NCBI GenBank assembly: GCA_965205855.1
Contig: OZ242184.1
Span: 672,001 to 736,000, forward strand
Length of the DNA stretch: 64,000 nucleotides
Reading direction: 5' to 3'
DNA from: Thermodesulfobacteriota bacterium
Lineage (GTDB): Bacteria > Desulfobacterota_D > UBA1144 > Nemesobacterales > Mycalebacteriaceae
Numbering within the stretch: position 1 is the first letter of the stretch; each line of letters starts with the position of its first letter. Shown here piece by piece: positions 28,567-35,597 of the stretch. The translations under genes and the position numbers were made by a program. A model generated the notes under the pieces. It did no database searches and was not told the DNA's origin. It worked only from the letters and a program-made list of their open reading frames with translations.

Positions 28567-30711
28567 TCAGGGGGAGAACGTGTTTTTTTCCTTGACTTCC
28601 TTGTACGCCTTGCGGAAATGAGACGCCGTTATTCTGAAAGCGCTTTTTCTGTTCTTTATCTGCTCGTTGAGGGCAAAAATGGACGCTTTTTGACAGACAA
28701 GTTTTATGTCCGCTCCCGACATTCCTTTCATCTTTGCCGCCAGAGTTTTAAGGTTCAGATTCTTTGCGACAGGTTTCTCGCCGTTGTGAATACCGAGGAT
28801 TTCCTCAATGCCCGAAGAGTCCGGAAGCGGTATGTCAAGAACCAGATCAAACCTTCCCGACCTCATTAGCGCAGGGTCCACAATGTCTCTACGGTTTGTC
28901 GCGGCAAGCACCTGAACGTCGGATAATTCCTCTATGCCGTCCATCTCGGCAAGCATCTGGCTTACGACTTGTTCCGACACTCTGTTGCCATCGGAATCCC
29001 TTCTTGCCGGCGCGAGTGCGTCTATTTCATCAAAGAAAATTATCGCCGGAGCCACCTGTCTTGCCTTTGAAAAAACATTTCTTATCGCCCGCTCGGATTC
29101 GCCGACATATTTTGAAAGAAGCTCTGCCCCTTTGACCGATATAAAGTTGACCCCGCATTCGTTTGCAAGGGCTCTGGCAATAAGGGTTTTTCCGGTTCCC
29201 GGAGTTCCGCATAACATTATGCCTTTTGGCGGGCTCACCTCTGCCGCTTTGAAAAGCTCCTTGTGTTTTAAAGGCATAATCACCGATTCGTAAAGGGTGT
29301 TTTTAATCTCTTTCAACCCGCCTATGCTCTCAAGCCCCGCTTCGGGTATGTCAACTGATATTTCTCTAATTGCGGAAGGCTCCACCTCTTTCAGGGCGGT
29401 GGTAAAGTTCTCCATTGAAACGACAACCGCGCTGTTATCTTTCTTCGCTTTCCGCGCGGTGGTGGTTGCGGCATCGTCATACTCCTGCGCGCCGCTGTCA
29501 AGCAGGCCGCTGAGTGCTTTGAGAGCGGATTCCTTGCACAACATCTCAAGGTCGGCTCCCGTGAAGCCACTTGTCATTTCCGCGATACGTTGAAAGTCAA
29601 CATCCTTTGCAAGCGGCATATCTTTACAGTGAATTTTGAGAATTTCGGCTCTGGAAAGAGTGTCGGGAACATCAAGCGTTATCTCTCTGTCAAATCTTCC
29701 CGCCCGCCGGAGCGCGGGGTCTATTGAGTCCGGAAGGTTGGTCGCACCTATGACAGTCACATTCCCTTTTTTCTTCAGTCCGTCCATCATTGTGAGCAAC
29801 TGGGCGACCACTCTTTTTTCCACCTCGCCGGAGACTTTGTCTCTGCGCGGGGCTATGGCGTCCAACTCATCAAGGAATATGATGGATGGCTGTTTTTCTT
29901 CGGCGAGTTCAAAGATTTCCCTTATTCGCGCTTCGCTTTCCCCGTAATGTTTGTTGATTACTTCGGGACCGTTCACAATCTGGAAATTAACTTTTGCCTC
30001 ATAAATCGCAGACTTGGCAAGCATGGTTTTGCCGCTTCCGGGAGGCCCGATGAGGAGAATTCCCCTTGGTGGTTCTATTCCCAGATTGGCAAAAACTTCG
30101 GGAAAACGGATTGGAATCTCAACTATTTCGCGGATTTTGCTTATCTGCTTTTTCAGTCCGCCGATTTGCCCGTAGCCGACTCTGCCGTCCGGTTGGCTGT
30201 CTGCATTTTTCAGAACCCGTGCGATATTTATTCCGGTTGTTTTTTCAACAAAAACCGGTTTGGGGGAGGTTGGCACTGTGCTTATCACATAGATTTCCTC
30301 AGGGTTTTTGCCGTTTTTTCCCATGCCGACTTTGTCTCCGACCGTCAGGGGAAGTCCCAAGAGGATTGAATGAATGGCTTTTTTGCCGCCTCTTTCGTAG
30401 AGAACGGTTTTGTCCGATACGGCAACGGTAATCTGCTTTGCGGCTTTAAGGGATGATTTTCTGATTATTACAAAGTCGTTTATTCCCGACCGCGCGTTGT
30501 GGCGCGTGAACGAATCAATCTCAACGATGCCTTCATTTGAGCCGCCTTCCTCCTCAAGAGGCACGGCTCTTGCTGCGGTCTTTCTTTTTCCACCAATCTC
30601 TATGGCGTCAAAAGGTTCAACGCCCAACTCATGCATATTGTTGCGGCTGAGTCTGGCAAACCCTTTGCCGTGGTCTTCGCAATCTATTTCTGAAATTTTC
30701 AGTGAAATCAT
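28567..30711 (-). CDS. CDC48/VCP-family double AAA+ ATPase
   Basis: N-domain plus two AAA modules (GPPGSGKT, GTPGTGKT), DPALRRAGRFDRE, VEPSAIRE. Confidence 0.9.
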   Translation of the reverse strand: MISLKISEIDCEDHGKGFARLSRNNMHELGVEPFDAIEIGGKRKTAARAVPLEEEGGSNEGIVEIDSFTRHNARSGINDFVIIRKSSLKAAKQITVAVSDKTVLYERGGKKAIHSILLGLPLTVGDKVGMGKNGKNPEEIYVISTVPTSPKPVFVEKTTGINIARVLKNADSQPDGRVGYGQIGGLKKQISKIREIVEIPIRFPEVFANLGIEPPRGILLIGPPGSGKTMLAKSAIYEAKVNFQIVNGPEVINKHYGESEARIREIFELAEEKQPSIIFLDELDAIAPRRDKVSGEVEKRVVAQLLTMMDGLKKKGNVTVIGATNLPDSIDPALRRAGRFDREITLDVPDTLSRAEILKIHCKDMPLAKDVDFQRIAEMTSGFTGADLEMLCKESALKALSGLLDSGAQEYDDAATTTARKAKKDNSAVVVSMENFTTALKEVEPSAIREISVDIPEAGLESIGGLKEIKNTLYESVIMPLKHKELFKAAEVSPPKGIMLCGTPGTGKTLIARALANECGVNFISVKGAELLSKYVGESERAIRNVFSKARQVAPAIIFFDEIDALAPARRDSDGNRVSEQVVSQMLAEMDGIEELSDVQVLAATNRRDIVDPALMRSGRFDLVLDIPLPDSSGIEEILGIHNGEKPVAKNLNLKTLAAKMKGMSGADIKLVCQKASIFALNEQIKNRKSAFRITASHFRKAYKEVKEKNTFSP

Positions 30712-30820
30712 CTTTCCGAAAAGGATACATCATCACAAACGTAAAGTGTGAAACTCGCAAGTTGTTGAGCGCGCGAAAGATGTGTTGATTTTTCGCCTTT
30801 ATCACTTCACACTTCTAACC

Positions 30821-31927
30821 TTGATAATCAAATCCGTATCTCTTCGCAACATCAGGTCTTACGCCTCCGAAACCCTGACTTTTCATCCCGCTTTCAACCT
30901 TATATGCGGGGAAAACGGACAGGGGAAAACAAACCTTCTTGAGGCCGCCTATATGCTTTGCAGGTTCAAGCCTCTGAGAGGGTCTTCTTCGTCGGAGATT
31001 GTGCGTTTCGGAGAACAGTCCGCATTGCTCAAGGGAGTAATTGAAAAGTATTCTCCGGCTTCGGTAACAGAGGTAAGTATTTCTTTTTCGCGCACATCGG
31101 GCGGCAAAAGGGTTGAAGTTAACGGCAAAATGCCCGCGAATTTGTCAAAAAAAGCGCTTGATTTTGAGGTTGTTCACTTCACTCCGTCTGAAGTGGATAT
31201 TGTCAAGGGAACACCGTCTTTGAGGAGGCGGTACTTTGATTCAATAATATGTGGGCTTGTCCCGTCCCACTTTCAGGACATTGTGGATTTTCAACGGGTT
31301 CTTAAACAACGCAATTCCCTTCTTGCCTCCGGCCGTACTACGGCATCGGGAATTGAGTTGTGGAACGGACAAATGGCTGAAACAGGTGGGAGAATTGTTC
31401 AAAAGCGCGTTCGCCTTGTTGAAAGGATAAACCGTGAAATGAAGTCTATATACAGGCATATAAGCGGCACAAACGTAAACGTTTCAGCGGCTTACGAGCC
31501 GTCTTTTGAAGTTTCCGGTGCGGATAGTAGCTCCGATATGTCCGATTCCATCGGAAAAGCCCTTCAAAATGCCTTTTTGCACGATAAAAAGACAAGACAC
31601 ACATCAATAGGTCCCCACAGAGACAGAATCTCGCTTCAGATAGACGGAAAAGACAGTTCCCTGTTCGCATCTCAGGGAGAAGCAAGAAGTATCGTTTTAG
31701 CCCTTAAGGTAGCCGAAATCGGTCTTTGCAGAGCGATTAAGAAGGAAAGTCCCATATTCCTGCTTGATGACATATCAAGCGAACTTGATGCGAGAAGAAG
31801 AAAATTTCTTTTTGATATGCTTCTGGACTATTCTGGACAGGTCTTTGTAACTTCCACATCCACCTCCGATATTCTCTATCGGGGAAAACGGAAAGTTTTT
31901 GATATCAAAGCCGGAAGAGTGGCGTAG
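30821..31927 (+). CDS. recF: DNA replication/repair protein RecF
   Basis: GENGQGKTNLLEA, GPHRD, SQGE, LLDDISSELD; start probably TTG 30821. Confidence 0.93.
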   Translation: MIIKSVSLRNIRSYASETLTFHPAFNLICGENGQGKTNLLEAAYMLCRFKPLRGSSSSEIVRFGEQSALLKGVIEKYSPASVTEVSISFSRTSGGKRVEVNGKMPANLSKKALDFEVVHFTPSEVDIVKGTPSLRRRYFDSIICGLVPSHFQDIVDFQRVLKQRNSLLASGRTTASGIELWNGQMAETGGRIVQKRVRLVERINREMKSIYRHISGTNVNVSAAYEPSFEVSGADSSSDMSDSIGKALQNAFLHDKKTRHTSIGPHRDRISLQIDGKDSSLFASQGEARSIVLALKVAEIGLCRAIKKESPIFLLDDISSELDARRRKFLFDMLLDYSGQVFVTSTSTSDILYRGKRKVFDIKAGRVA

Positions 31928-31979
31928 GGTACGTTCTGGCTGATGAAAATTTCTCCAAAACTACGATTGATAAATTATA

Positions 31980-32007
31980 AGTTAACATAATATAACTTAC
32001 CGGACTT
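31980..32007 (-). other. dif: dif-like XerC/XerD site, left prophage junction
   Basis: Minus strand AAGTCCGGTAA-GTTATA-TTATGTTAACT; 11-6-11 layout with XerD arm TTATGTTAA. Confidence 0.9.
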
Positions 32008-32013
32008 TGTCAA
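31984..32013 (-). promoter_or_regulatory. Putative sigma70 promoter overlapping the phage dif site
   Basis: TTGACA (32013-32008), 18 nt, TATGTT (31989-31984). Confidence 0.6.
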
Positions 32014-32189
32014 TCCCTTTTTTTTCCATTCTCTTTTTCACTCTCTTTTTTCCATTCTCTGGCGAGTGCTCTAATGATCGCTTTGATGACCGCTTTCGTA
32101 ATTCTGAAAATGCCCCATCCTACGAGGATTATTATGCCTACGTATAATACGAGTGTAATTATCTCAATAGGGTTTTGGTTGTTCTCCAT
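32010..32189 (-). CDS. 59-aa single-transmembrane phage protein (candidate lysis protein)
   Basis: Manual translation MENNQNPIEIITLVIYVGIIILVGWGIFRITKAVIKAIIRALAREWKKESEKENGKKRD; ATG directly follows the H stop. Confidence 0.7.
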   Translation of the reverse strand: MENNQNPIEIITLVLYVGIIILVGWGIFRITKAVIKAIIRALAREWKKESEKENGKKRD

Positions 32190-32777
32190 TTAATTTTTTT
32201 TATTAAAACCTTTCCAAAACTTTTTTTGTTTCTTTAGTTGATTTGTATTGTGGTTCTTTATTTTTTTTGTACCCATACTGATTAGGTCTACCCATGTTAG
32301 AGGATCATGAAGGGCTCCCCTGAGTTGTTTATGGGACGTCATTTTATCCAACCCCTTGATGTTTATACCTAAGCTGTCTGCTATTGCTTGAGCTGCTCCT
32401 GGATTTCCGCTGTTAAATGTGTCTGTTACTATTTTGGTTAGTTGAGCTTCTTTGTTTAGCTCTGCTTGATACCGTTGTGTTTTTGCTTGCATGGCAGTGT
32501 TAGCGATTTGGCTCATATTCTGCAATTTTTGCATTTTGAATTGATTTCTGATTTCTGCTCCCGATGTATTTGCCTGTGTTTGTCCTGCGATTGACTGCCC
32601 GCTTGCTCCTGTTCCTGCCCAGTCCCAAGGTGATAATCCTGTTTGTTTAGGACCTTCCTCGTAGAATTTTTTCCATTCTCCTCCTGTTGGAGCTTTTGGA
32701 CGTTTAGGTTTTGACAGGATATTTCCTATGATTCCGCCTCCGGCGCTTACAAGCGCTGCTGTTAATGGGTCAGCCAT
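32190..32777 (-). CDS. Microvirus DNA pilot protein (H/VP2-like)
   Basis: Ala/Gly-rich hydrophobic N-terminus, LSPWDWAG (recalled phiX H: LNAWERAG), Gln/Asn-rich coiled coil. Confidence 0.8.
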   Translation of the reverse strand: MADPLTAALVSAGGGIIGNILSKPKRPKAPTGGEWKKFYEEGPKQTGLSPWDWAGTGASGQSIAGQTQANTSGAEIRNQFKMQKLQNMSQIANTAMQAKTQRYQAELNKEAQLTKIVTDTFNSGNPGAAQAIADSLGINIKGLDKMTSHKQLRGALHDPLTWVDLISMGTKKIKNHNTNQLKKQKKFWKGFNKKN

Positions 32778-34138
32778 TACATATATGTCCTATATTCATG
32801 TGAGTTATTTTGCTTCATCCAATCCTCCGGCGGCGGTATTGCTATTTCGCTGGCATATCTGTCTCCGAGTTTTTTCACAGTATTAAAGTACCTCTCCCTT
32901 TGTTGGCTGTTTTCTGATAAGTATCGTTGTACCGTTATTGAGTCTTTCTTTAAGGTCCTGCAATTTTTGCATCTTTTCAATTCGTTCCGTTTCTGCATTC
33001 TCTCCGCTCTTCTCATTATCCAGTCGTCCGACATCCCAACCATATTCTGTTTGAATTTCATTTGCAAATTCATTAAGTTCAGCGTTTTTCTGCTGGGTAG
33101 CGATACGCTCCAGTTCTTCGCGCTCCATTCTCTCCCATTCGCTGGCAAATTCGCCAGTTTCTCCAGCAGGTTCTTTCCCAGTCCCTGGCTTGTTATTGTT
33201 CGGGTTAATTTTTTCGTTTTCCTTTTGTTTTTCCATTCTGATGCCTCCTCTTTGGTGCTGTATTTTAATAGGTATCTCGTACATTTTTCAAGTGTTTTGA
33301 GCGGTTCTCTTTCTCGTCCGTAATACATTACTGCTCTTCCTTCCGGCGTTTTCTTTTCTTTCTTTTTCACTTCAGTGGGGAATACCCACTGACACTTATT
33401 TTTCCAGACGTCTCCCATGAACCTTATAGGCTGGCATGAAGTCCATCCCCATTTCCATAAGTTTCCCACGGCGGCGATTTCTCTTTTGTTTCCGGGTCTG
33501 CCTCGGTTTGGATCCCGCTTCCATTTTTCCGGAATCTCTTCCGCGATGATAATAGCGTGTATGTGTCCGTGGTCGTTTTTCTTTCCGTGTTCCGTTGTTT
33601 TGATATATGTCACTCCCTTCCAAGCATCTCTGTTTTTCCTTTCTACGCCTGCCGCGCTTGCGCACTCTCTTTTGAAGGCTTTGATAAATTTGCTCCATTC
33701 CTTTGAGCCTGCTCCAAAAGCCTTTTCATTATGATATGGAGTTGAGGTTAGTGTAAGAAACATCATATAAGCCTGCGTGTTATCATTCATAGCCTTTTGC
33801 GTCTGTAAGTAGTGTTTTCTTTTTCTTGCTTCTCTGTTGTGTTGATTCAGCAGTTCCCAATGTGGATTTATAGGTTGGTTTTCTCTTTTTTCCAGTTCAA
33901 GTCCTATCATTTCAAGTGCTTTATTTAGAGTTGGTATTCCGACTTGTTTAATAGTAAAGTTAGTTTCCCCCTTTAAGGCATATTTTTTTAGATCTTGTAT
34001 CAGGTTCGTGTTTTCCGCTGTTTGGTATTCATCGTTCACGATTTCATTTAGATGTCCCGCATAGCGGTGGTATTCTATTTTTTCTACAAGTTTTTTTGCT
34101 TGCCACCGTTTAAGTGCGGGTCCTCCGGCGGCAAGCAT
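32777..34138 (-). CDS. Rolling-circle replication initiator (HUH endonuclease, protein A-like)
   Basis: Motif I FLTLT, motif II HIHAI, motif III YLLKY with two tyrosines. Confidence 0.9.
   Translation of the reverse strand: MLAAGGPALKRWQAKKLVEKIEYHRYAGHLNEIVNDEYQTAENTNLIQDLKKYALKGETNFTIKQVGIPTLNKALEMIGLELEKRENQPINPHWELLNQHNREARKRKHYLQTQKAMNDNTQAYMMFLTLTSTPYHNEKAFGAGSKEWSKFIKAFKRECASAAGVERKNRDAWKGVTYIKTTEHGKKNDHGHIHAIIIAEEIPEKWKRDPNRGRPGNKREIAAVGNLWKWGWTSCQPIRFMGDVWKNKCQWVFPTEVKKKEKKTPEGRAVMYYGREREPLKTLEKCTRYLLKYSTKEEASEWKNKRKTKKLTRTITSQGLGKNLLEKLANLPANGREWSAKNWSVSLPSRKTLNLMNLQMKFKQNMVGMSDDWIMRRAERMQKRNELKRCKNCRTLKKDSITVQRYLSENSQQRERYFNTVKKLGDRYASEIAIPPPEDWMKQNNSHEYRTYM
32883..33236 (-). CDS. 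Overprinted internal scaffolding protein B-like ORF (117 aa)
   Basis: Alternative frame inside Rep; SD GAGGAGG before ATG 33236; begins at the EW codons after YxxKY, as phiX B does. Confidence 0.65.
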   Translation of the reverse strand: MEKQKENEKINPNNNKPGTGKEPAGETGEFASEWERMEREELERIATQQKNAELNEFANEIQTEYGWDVGRLDNEKSGENAETERIEKMQKLQDLKERLNNGTTILIRKQPTKGEVL

Positions 34139-34224
34139 TATCTCTCTGGCTGTGAACTGCCCGATTGAGTCTATTTCTGCCGTTTTAATCCTACTTACCC
34201 CCTTGGTCGTTTTGTTTTCGTGTC

Positions 34225-34713
34225 TTAGGAGCCACTTTTTTTACCACTTTTGCTTGGGAAAGCTGTTTCTATTATGTTTTTTCGGAACTCGTCAACCTCT
34301 AGTGTTTGCGTTCCCGTGGCGTAGAGCCACATAAGCGAGTGTATTTGAGTTGCGGTCATTCCTGCGGCAAAGTTTCCGGCTTCGTCATTTGCCAGTGTTT
34401 CCGCTCGTCTTGCACTCTCATACATCATTGCCACCTTGAGCCAGTTTGTTGGGCTCACAAAGATTACACAGTAGGCTGCGATTACATTTGCGCTAATGTC
34501 TACCATTTCGATACCCATTAGATCTGAGCTTTGTCTTATGAGTTGGTCAACCGCGGCTCTGTTTTCTGCTCGTTCTGATTTTAACCAGGGTTTTGGTCCA
34601 ACTACCGTTTCCCATCTTGCCCGCGGTATTCCGCTTTCCCGGATTAGGTCCGGGAAGTATATTTCCTTTGCGTGACGGATTGCCGTCATTACCCACTCGT
34701 TTGCTTCAATCAT
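34225..34713 (-). CDS. External scaffolding protein D-like
   Basis: KPWLKSERA..RAAVD..DLMG..VIAAYCVIFVSPTN aligns by eye with recalled phiX D KVWIATDRS..RRCVE..DFVG..FIAAVIAYYVHPVN; SD AAGGGGG. Confidence 0.8.
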   Translation of the reverse strand: MIEANEWVMTAIRHAKEIYFPDLIRESGIPRARWETVVGPKPWLKSERAENRAAVDQLIRQSSDLMGIEMVDISANVIAAYCVIFVSPTNWLKVAMMYESARRAETLANDEAGNFAAGMTATQIHSLMWLYATGTQTLEVDEFRKNIIETAFPSKSGKKSGS

Positions 34714-34948
34714 TGTATAAGTACCCCCTTTGTTTTTGATTGATTATTTTGTTGGCTATTTCTGTGGCACATTCTTCTATGCCTCTTTTGATTTTCACGA
34801 TTGCTTCTCTGTCTCTGTTTATCCATTCCTGTATTTTTTTCTGGTCTTTTGTTTGTTCAAGGAAAGCGAATTGTTTTTGGAGTGCCTCTGTTAGAGTTTC
34901 CAATTCCTGTGCTTTTTCGTTTATGAGATTGACTGTTTCTAAGTTCAT
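34706..34948 (-). CDS. 80-aa helical phage protein (positionally C-like)
   Basis: ATG 34948 begins 4 nt after the G stop; its stop overlaps the D start. Confidence 0.65.
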   Translation of the reverse strand: MNLETVNLINEKAQELETLTEALQKQFAFLEQTKDQKKIQEWINRDREAIVKIKRGIEECATEIANKIINQKQRGYLYND

Positions 34949-34952
34949 TTTT

Positions 34953-35597
34953 TTATGCCTTTGGATTGTATATATCCGTTGATATTTGCTCCCGCATTTG
35001 CATTTGTAAGCTAATAGTAGTGTCACCGGTTCCTTGATCTGCTTCTGTTTTTGCGATTGCGATGCCGAAACCAAACAGTATGTAATTTATTCCTATTCTT
35101 CTAAGTTCCGTGAAGTTGGCACTGGTTATTGTTAGACCACTTGTGAGGTTGTTCCAGTTCAGCACATGTAATGGCTGTGTTATGTAAGTTTGGGTGTTTG
35201 AGAGTTGTTGCGAGGTTGAACTTATGAACGGTGTTATTCTCTTTTCTTCCTCTTTATTTGTATTTCTTGCGCTCATTATCAGGTTAATAGTCCTTTCCAG
35301 GTTATCGTTAGGTATCTCTGAGATAAGCGATACTAGTATGTTGTTTTCCGTTATTGTGTGGTTGTTATCATAATTCCACAAATTTTCCCAATTTATATGT
35401 ATGCTTGCGTGCGTTATTCCCTTTGTTTGTTGCCCTGTAAGTATGTAAGACCTCTTAAAGTTGTTGGTACTTCCTATTGCCGGTGCTATTTCTGTTAAGT
35501 CTGTTGACTCACTTATTCTTTTTTGCGGCACATTGTAAGTTGTGTTTTGTTCCAGCCATAACTCTTTAGCGTCAAGTGTATTCCATCCATTTGCCAT
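34953..35597 (-). CDS. Major spike protein G-like
   Basis: Coupled to the capsid gene (TAATG); Thr/Asn/Ile-rich beta-type composition; C-terminus GINYILFGF..ISLQ..IYNPK resembles recalled phiX G GNNVYVGF..VSLNQ..LQPLK. Confidence 0.65.
   Translation of the reverse strand: MANGWNTLDAKELWLEQNTTYNVPQKRISESTDLTEIAPAIGSTNNFKRSYILTGQQTKGITHASIHINWENLWNYDNNHTITENNILVSLISEIPNDNLERTINLIMSARNTNKEEEKRITPFISSTSQQLSNTQTYITQPLHVLNWNNLTSGLTITSANFTELRRIGINYILFGFGIAIAKTEADQGTGDTTISLQMQMREQISTDIYNPKA

Follow-up and report, generated by a model that had tools for sequence, protein, structure and literature searches.

Temperate microviruses are known to borrow XerC and XerD, which are recombinases of their hosts, and the available portions of three accounts of such elements (PMC7062461, PMC3091885 and PMC9865509) do not address how the quiet state is kept where no repressor can be recognised. 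This question is raised here by a prophage of family Microviridae located in a window of 64,000 nucleotides (nt) from a Thermodesulfobacteriota bacterium (assembly GCA_965205855.1, contig OZ242184.1, positions 672,001 to 736,000), where it occupies a dif-like site, the probable chromosomal XerC/XerD recombination site. A preliminary description of this DNA had proposed that integration splits a promoter and silences the phage, and that excision reassembles the promoter. The analysis presented here leads us to propose, tentatively, that the attachment site may lie inside a sigma-70-type promoter for the leading block of phage genes, with an effect on that block. A wider version, in which the host dif would provide the spacer and -10 box of a master promoter and XerC/XerD recombination, possibly with occupancy, would make up the whole of a repressor-free switch, appears unlikely on the same sequence data.

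The junctions and the candidate promoter

The prophage covered 5,860 bp between two dif-like 28-mers (spacing of repeat starts). These were contained in a 30-nt direct repeat, 93% identical between its copies at 31979-32008 and 37839-37868, and each copy read on the minus strand as two 11-nt arms, first that for XerC and then that for XerD, with a 6-nt centre between them. At the left junction (attL, 31980-32007, minus strand) these were located at 32007-31997, 31996-31991 and 31990-31980, and at the right junction (attR, 37840-37867, minus strand) at 37867-37857, 37856-37851 and 37850-37840, respectively. Centre and XerD arm were identical at both junctions; the XerC arms differed at two of 11 positions. 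All five same-genus genomes displayed a single empty site beside the orthologue of a HIT-family gene (38042-38419, plus strand), and its XerC arm was that of the right junction, with one base different in one genome. The left-junction arm is therefore the phage arm, as it departs at two of 11 positions from the host arm of the empty sites. Crossover was confined to the stretch from the last XerC-arm difference to where the XerD arm ends, hence between the two promoter boxes described below. A 16-mer of the dif core was encountered at these two places only in the genome.

Like other integrative mobile elements exploiting Xer (IMEX), the prophage displayed dif-like flanks with one host arm and one element arm at a host locus, and lacked a recombinase of its own: no recombinase family of Pfam or PHROGs was matched by any of its nine open reading frames (ORFs) at E 0.01. 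In the host, the XerD model, the one model scored, found a match above its cut-off at 341 bits and a further Xer paralogue at 290 bits. On the single 1.40-Mb contig, dnaA was located at 68 kb and the prophage, at 704-710 kb, some 45% round from it; the cumulative GC skew was not clean.

A consensus scan and direct reading recovered the promoter-like site reported earlier at the phage end, TTGACA-N18-TATGTT on the minus strand (32013-31984), with 10 of 12 consensus matches. Its -35 box (TTGACA, 32008-32013) is of phage origin and directly adjoins the XerC arm of the phage, an assignment that now rests on the empty sites in the five genomes of the genus, and its -10 box (TATGTT, 31984-31989) is part of the XerD arm, so that the two boxes stand on opposite sides of the recombination joint. 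An alternative -10 box, TATTAT, was available at attL with a 15-nt spacer. The target towards which this site points in the prophage was correctly named as the 3' end of recF (30782-31927, plus strand; TIGR00611 316 bits, cut-off 172); since recF lies on the plus strand and ends at 31927, the attL promoter is antisense to it. At the right junction the same -10 box (37849-37844) precedes GGAGG (37831-37827) and the ATG (37821-37819) of ORF1, the first phage gene (113 aa, 37480-37821, minus strand), and the -35 position is occupied by the non-consensus host hexamer AACGTA (37868-37873, minus strand), with one of six matches to TTGACA. Rebuilding the joined arrangement by coordinates from both junctions yielded TTGACA-N18-TATGTT followed further on by GGAGG and ATG, as the preliminary description had it. 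Its remarks on gene content stood as well: nine of nine phage ORFs were on the minus strand, and none matched a repressor family (Pfam, PHROGs). In the circle, the joined site is the sole non-coding stretch directly upstream of ORF1, and its spacing to GGAGG and ATG is a workable one.

The geometry suggests the following course of events. In the circular double-stranded form, the phage TTGACA would abut the XerC arm, and this arm, the centre and one further base would constitute the 18-nt spacer; TATGTT of the XerD arm would act as -10 box, with GGAGG and the start of ORF1 12 and 22 nt further on. Recombination with the chromosomal dif by host XerC/XerD would swap everything on the XerC side. 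Because of this exchange, ORF1, ORF2 and the capsid gene would be preceded in the prophage by host DNA without a -35 box, and the intact promoter would be left at the other end, antisense into recF. Transcription of the leading block would be lower in the integrated state, not necessarily zero, and the promoter would be restored whenever two phage ends rejoin, in a circle or a tandem. We infer from sequence that the site is active as a promoter, that the block is transcribed mainly from it and that the difference matters for lysogeny; the evidence for firing and for a role in governing lysogeny is circumstantial. The earlier proposal that integration silences and excision activates would, in this form, offer an explanation of lysogeny, and XerC/XerD sitting on the spacer and -10 box might further affect the promoter.

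Promoter usage of the host and junction scores

Among the 524 host upstream regions considered for hexamer enrichment, TATAAT was the most enriched hexamer (66 seen versus 14 expected from the genome). Exact TTGACA-N16-18-TANNNT was found at 67 sites of the host genome, of which 49 were intergenic, intergenic DNA representing 10.7% of the genome by crude ORF calls. Intergenic counts were 19, 20 and 11 for spacers of 16, 17 and 18 nt, versus 0-7 for each spacer of 10-15 and 19-25 nt, and coding DNA displayed no such peak. A same-strand gene start was located at most 150 nt away from 29 of the 49 intergenic sites. The -10 box TATGTT was encountered with TTGACA and a 17-nt spacer at two other host intergenic sites, upstream of genes. 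GGAGG was present in 126 of 1,040 host start regions versus eight in a control window, a figure somewhat inflated by start choice. As far as sequence statistics can say, the host uses sigma-70-type TTGACA and TANNNT boxes with spacers of 16-18 nt.

The junctions were scored with a two-block promoter model trained on host upstream regions, which leans to its seed as a result of Viterbi training. The phage-armed junction attL, and equally the joined form, scored 11.6 bits with the N18 TATGTT and 12.5 bits with the N15 TATTAT. The best straddling site reached 7.7 bits at the integrated junction attR, and in the five genus genomes the empty dif gave no more than -2.1 to 2.6 bits; it is thus the phage flank that makes the difference. 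An extra site of 8.6 bits with a 15-nt spacer was found further upstream at attR.

Elsewhere in the prophage, the best-scoring site (TTGAAA-N18-TAAAAT, 13.6 bits) was located in the replication initiator gene (33262-33291, minus strand), and another promoter-like site in the capsid gene at 35941 (11.7 bits). Among the ten best sites, none on the minus strand with at least 9.7 bits fell between attR and the start of the capsid gene. As internal sites occur elsewhere and none there, only the leading block of ORF1, ORF2 and capsid gene could depend on the joined promoter; the remaining phage genes need not be silent in the integrated state.

On the plus strand, a further site, TTGACA-N16-TAACGT (37601-37628, 12.4 bits in the host model), was found within ORF1. 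If active, it would produce antisense RNA over the ORF1 start and attR.

The host side of the right junction displayed a motif about 40 nt from dif (37895-37925), kept in six of six genus genomes and resembling on the plus strand an extended -10 element for the HIT gene. Because this motif points away from the prophage, no strong host promoter appears to read into the phage. On the other side, recF was adjoined by a gene for a CDC48-family double AAA ATPase (28567-30711, minus strand; TIGR01243 765 bits, just under the cut-off of 803).

The joined form in public sequencing runs

Six public runs contained the stretch or part of it, none of them recorded as RNA, and contigs of four of these were compared. 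One of them, run X1, had a size fitting a near-pure culture of this genome and is not independent of the assembly, as it may be its source. Host contigs of X1 displayed depths of 315-328 and reference-specific phage pieces depths of 301-307. A second phage variant was present at a depth of 250-262, and the core shared by both (32388-37144) had a depth of 541, the sum of the two. In the variant, segments 32024-32340 (317 nt beside TTGACA) and 37144-37516 were replaced, and 21 of 199 positions differed in 37630-37828, within ORF1.

A 410-nt contig of this run (depth 250.7) read from 32023 to 31979 and then continued with nine letters, nine of which corresponded to 37830-37838, the other phage end, and not to the host flank. 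This contig is a phage-to-phage joint across dif, representing either the phage attachment site (attP) in circular DNA or the central joint within a tandem. The joined form is physically present, in the diverged variant and as one or the other of these arrangements; at about 0.8, the ratio of depths speaks rather for a separate molecule. One culture seems to hold both integrated and joined forms. No difference was listed for the joint contig in 32001-32023, where TTGACA was kept, and two unlisted differences would, by elimination from the rule under which differences were listed, fall in 31979-32000. The block conserved in the variant extended from ten bases 5' of the -35 box, over dif, to the first ORF1 codons, with diverged sequence on both sides. 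Judged on these two sequences, such a block fits a promoter, attP and a translation start.

The variant shared the 4.7-kb core exactly, and the modules on both sides of attP were replaced or 10% diverged; affected in this way were the 59-aa ORF, ORF1, ORF2 and, in the 195-aa protein, the C-terminal part. The phage displayed in this way a variable accessory region centred on the attachment site.

Run X4, from another study, contained the same left junction without difference (31800-32192). On one X4 contig, the right part corresponded to the phage left end from 32022 and the 82 letters leftward resembled neither attL nor the joined form. This break coincided with a copy of a 14-nt repeat (32020-32033).

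Weighing of the explanations

Several points weigh against a promoter at the attachment site that matters to the phage. The -10 box matched the consensus at only four of six positions, and its spacer of 18 nt was the least used of the three favoured by the host (11 of 50 intergenic sites at N16-18). TTGACA is partly constrained by coding, since it overlaps the TGA stop (32012-32010) of the last phage ORF (59 aa). XerC and XerD would presumably occupy the spacer and -10 box in the circle also, and could there repress the joined promoter. The conserved block of the variant is of limited help, as attP function alone would also keep much of it, and the proposal concerns a single phage, no relative of which was found in IMG/VR, JGI metagenomes or GTDB representatives. 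In X1, a culture at about 300x depth, the joined arrangement was present at about 0.8 copies per chromosome (250-262 versus 315-328); with the joined form near one copy per chromosome in a well-grown culture, an intact promoter cannot alone mean lysis. Lastly, the internal sites at 33291 and 35941 score as high as the junction promoter or higher. Transcription of the phage from internal promoters in the integrated state had been named beforehand as incompatible with the proposal, and sites of 13.6 and 11.7 bits may allow for it.

These points also feed the strongest of the rival explanations, namely that the box pair is a chance product or by-product, that the phage is transcribed from its internal promoters and that integration changes little. 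We regard this account as possible, if somewhat doubtful. Phages of the phiX174 type are transcribed from internal promoters. Cores of dif are AT-rich and always supply several -10-like hexamers for free, and TTGACA amounts here to the last codon and TGA stop of the 59-aa ORF with two further bases. Between 4.0% (phage-strand) and 7.9% (host-genome) of random 30-nt flanks gave an equal or better host-model score, and 4.5-6.3% held a -35 box when five of six matches were allowed. Sites of at least 11.58 bits were spread over the host genome at 0.19 per kb-strand in coding DNA (481 sites) versus 0.84 in intergenic DNA (252 sites), and generic promoter-like sites in 8 kb numbered 11 versus 13.9 +/- 3.6 in shuffles, i.e. 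without excess. A perfect TTGACA at 16-18 nt from a core TANNNT was, on the other hand, found in only 0.31% (phage-strand) to 0.43% (host-genome) of random flanks. Chance would thus yield the perfect box rarely and the score at a modest rate. Chance also has to account for the position of the site, in the only non-coding stretch of the circle directly before the first gene, for the want of any other candidate of at least 9.7 bits before ORF1, ORF2 or the capsid gene, and for the persistence of TTGACA in the diverged X1 variant.

Unrelated elements in IMG/VR speak for chance as well. A looser dif pattern gave at least 120 stretches, 118 of which could be scored for the -35 position; these were located on contigs of unrelated elements whose host is not identified, and none among the matches listed was related to the phage (tblastn with six phage proteins). 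Among these matches, TTGACA was found at the corresponding place in 0 of 118 sites and a -35 box with five of six matches in two.

A large family of viral contigs in IMG/VR (loci L028-L147, e.g. L039, L071 and L106), unrelated to the phage by tblastn, displayed a dif-like site with the XerC and XerD arms of the host genus and the centre TGTATA. They carried TTGACT or TTGACA about 20 nt after dif, a promoter-like box downstream of dif and not across it. Contig L052 and its kin were considered as a second example and dropped, as their ORFs run the opposite way and the ATG following dif opens no frame.

A second rival dispenses with the junction promoter: linearisation alone would silence the leading block, because late internal transcripts, for instance from 33291, would cross the 48-nt gap in the circle and run into recF in the prophage, TTGACA adding little. 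The scan listed terminator-like sites of the minus strand only at 38446 and 34480, none of them in the gap separating the last ORF from ORF1, and late internal transcripts could therefore read round the circle into the leading block. The best-scoring site is located in the replication initiator gene, upstream of the gap, and all genes run in one direction with very short gaps. Such a mechanism leaves unexplained why a perfect -35 box exactly abuts the arm, and we hold it to be improbable.

Hardly probable is an account in which the geometry is incidental and lysogeny is held by an unrecognised regulator (ORF1 or an 80-aa coiled-coil protein), by antisense RNA from the plus-strand site at 37601 or by XerC/XerD occupancy of dif: it would fit the tolerance of the joined arrangement in X1, the 12.4 bits of that plus-strand site and the room for a novel regulator left by ORF1 and three further ORFs without family, but no DNA-binding family was found in any phage ORF (Pfam, PHROGs).

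A promoter split at the attachment site, if real, would be a minimal, protein-free answer to the question of the quiet state, coupling phage expression to host cell-cycle recombination. In the wider version, judged unlikely above, the promoter would be re-armed by every excision at cell division, and the orphan copy at attL would give rise to transcripts antisense to recF. As -10-like hexamers are available in every dif core, other dif-integrating phages would need no more than one -35 box on the XerC side to evolve such a switch. The idea can be put to a direct test at this locus, where both junctions are known to the exact base and together give the joined site, and where the promoter usage of the host fits.

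Gene content and relatives of the prophage

The assignment to family Microviridae was based on an F-type single-jelly-roll capsid protein (PF02305 63.9 bits, cut-off 25; phrog_514 E 9.3e-26), a rolling-circle initiator (PF23343 33.8 bits, cut-off 27.8; phrog_713 E 5.9e-20) and a genome within the range of about 4-7 kb with unidirectional genes. The plus-strand AT skew of about -0.4 over the element agreed with genes on the minus strand, on which all ORFs given below are located.

ORF1, the first gene after attP, encoded an orphan protein without family match (Pfam, PHROGs) or atlas match. At E 0.001, two proteins were found among 1.84 billion representatives, ORF1 itself and one weak relative. 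Its single-sequence structure model consisted mainly of strands and, because of its low confidence (predicted local distance difference test score, pLDDT, of 51), is uninformative either way on a role as regulator. ORF2 (67 aa, 37280-37483) displayed a lipoprotein-type signal ending L-A-G-C, as read from sequence, and no family match; an accessory role in exclusion or lysis is conceivable. It was followed by the gene for the major capsid protein (553 aa, 35597-37258), a 214-aa ORF without assigned function in the ORF listing and the Pfam/PHROGs scan (34953-35597) and an ORF of 122 aa (34706-35074), or of 80 aa if started from the ATG at 34948, the shorter form being coiled-coil-like. Next came a scaffold or head-morphogenesis protein (162 aa, 34225-34713; phrog_1386 E 1.9e-10), which displayed a weak likeness to scaffold D, the external scaffold of phiX-type phages (19 bits with Pfam gpD, whose cut-off is 25). 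The rolling-circle replication initiator, Rep (453 aa, 32777-34138), was followed by a glycine-rich ORF (195 aa, 32190-32777) without Pfam or PHROGs family match, for which a pilot-like protein would be a guess from position, and by the last gene before attP, a 59-aa ORF with one hydrophobic helix (32010-32189).

An exact 14-nt repeat was encountered three times (32020-32033, 32046-32059 and 32667-32680), every copy encoding E-W-K-K. Two copies were located just 5' of the -35 box, at the C-terminal end of the 59-aa ORF, and one in the 195-aa ORF. An A-tract beside TTGACA resembles the consensus of an UP element.

The lineage appeared isolated. A search of the capsid protein against 5.8 billion proteins (E 1e-5) returned two sequences, itself and one other (P0002), 53% identical and located on a 6,699-nt contig. 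Against GenBank phages, seven records were found, 22-31% identical over 19-31% of the query. No relatives of the phage were detected in IMG/VR (capsid query and two-sequence alignment query), in GTDB representatives, in JGI metagenomes or in 60 relatives of the host. The phage-arm dif pattern had no match in JGI metagenomes and two in GTDB representatives, both unrelated single sites. As its capsid is distant from those of all GenBank microviruses, the phage may constitute a separate deep lineage of family Microviridae. It would add a deep-branching microvirus to a phylum in which PF02305 (Phage_F) was found in 0 of 119 other genomes of the host class and phylum (same 120 genomes).

Comparison with known systems

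Rewiring of expression by integration or excision across an attachment site is familiar from several other elements. Transcription of the Tn916 transfer genes depends on circularisation, mycobacteriophages display integration-dependent immunity, and integration of SSV1 splits its integrase gene. The present locus resembles them in this respect and differs in what would be split: those elements divide a unit of transcription, a tag for degradation or a reading frame, and none of them is known to divide a -35/-10 pair over a host dif.

Filamentous phages using Xer carry repressors, such as RstR in CTXphi, and we know of no split promoter among them. Members of Bacteroidetes, the hosts of another group of dif-associated proviruses, use a different promoter type. 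CTXphi, VGJphi and TLCphi are named as Xer-using filamentous phages in the available portions of two reports (PMC3091885, PMC7062461); like the phage described here, they are small single-stranded DNA phages put into dif by host XerC/XerD, but they belong to a different virus family. The microvirus proviruses of Bacteroidetes share with it dif-like flanking repeats and the lack of a recombinase gene, and differ in host phylum, as far as the available part of their description goes (Krupovic and Forterre 2011, PMC3091885).

A close parallel is provided by the enterogokushovirus prophages, EC6098 and related elements of E. coli, which are likewise microviruses without integrase inserted at dif by XerC/XerD (Kirchberger and Ochman 2020, PMC7062461, as available in part). 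According to the same partial source, the first gene has the bacterial dif upstream of it and the last gene the phage dif downstream, integration requires xerC, xerD and both arms, and circular DNA of EC6098 coexists with prophages. Cultures with circular DNA only released more phage than lysogens did (PMC7062461, available portion), which is consistent with the junction-promoter model by analogy, other explanations existing too. The phage described here differs from EC6098 in a capsid that is not detectably close, given the low identities to GenBank phages reported above, and in its gene set, which includes a D-like scaffold. The phage-specific dif differences are located in the XerC arm here and in spacer and XerD arm in EC6098, as given in the portion consulted (PMC7062461).

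A promoter seems not to have been considered for these prophages. In the available main text of PMC7062461 the words 'repressor' and 'transcription' are absent and 'promoter' is confined to the reference list, and on these grounds no promoter model was proposed there. The words 'promoter' and 'repressor' have no occurrence in the available text of PMC3091885, and are absent from the available main text of Olo Ndela et al. 2022 (PMC9865509). A wider literature search, judged from titles and abstracts, yielded no promoter split by phage integration. What appears to be new is therefore a candidate promoter assembled by recombination in a virus that uses the host dif machinery, which was not found in print in these searches; insertion sequences already provide examples of the principle.

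In circles of IS2 and IS911, the abutted ends assemble the promoter Pjunc with a strict spacer of 17 nt (PMC3299598, available in part). As in the arrangement proposed here, one end provides the -35 box and the other the -10 box, a promoter is formed only when the ends abut in the circle, the joint sets the length of the spacer, the product drives the element's own genes and insertion dismantles it (same partial source). The joint of the phage is, in contrast, a 28-bp host XerC/XerD site, whereas that of the insertion sequences consists of inverted-repeat ends joined by transposase. The phage element is a virus, and its candidate promoter would drive a structural block, whereas the insertion sequence promoter drives transposase. 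Finally, and unlike in IS2 and IS911, the whole candidate promoter of the phage survives integration at one junction, where it faces host DNA.

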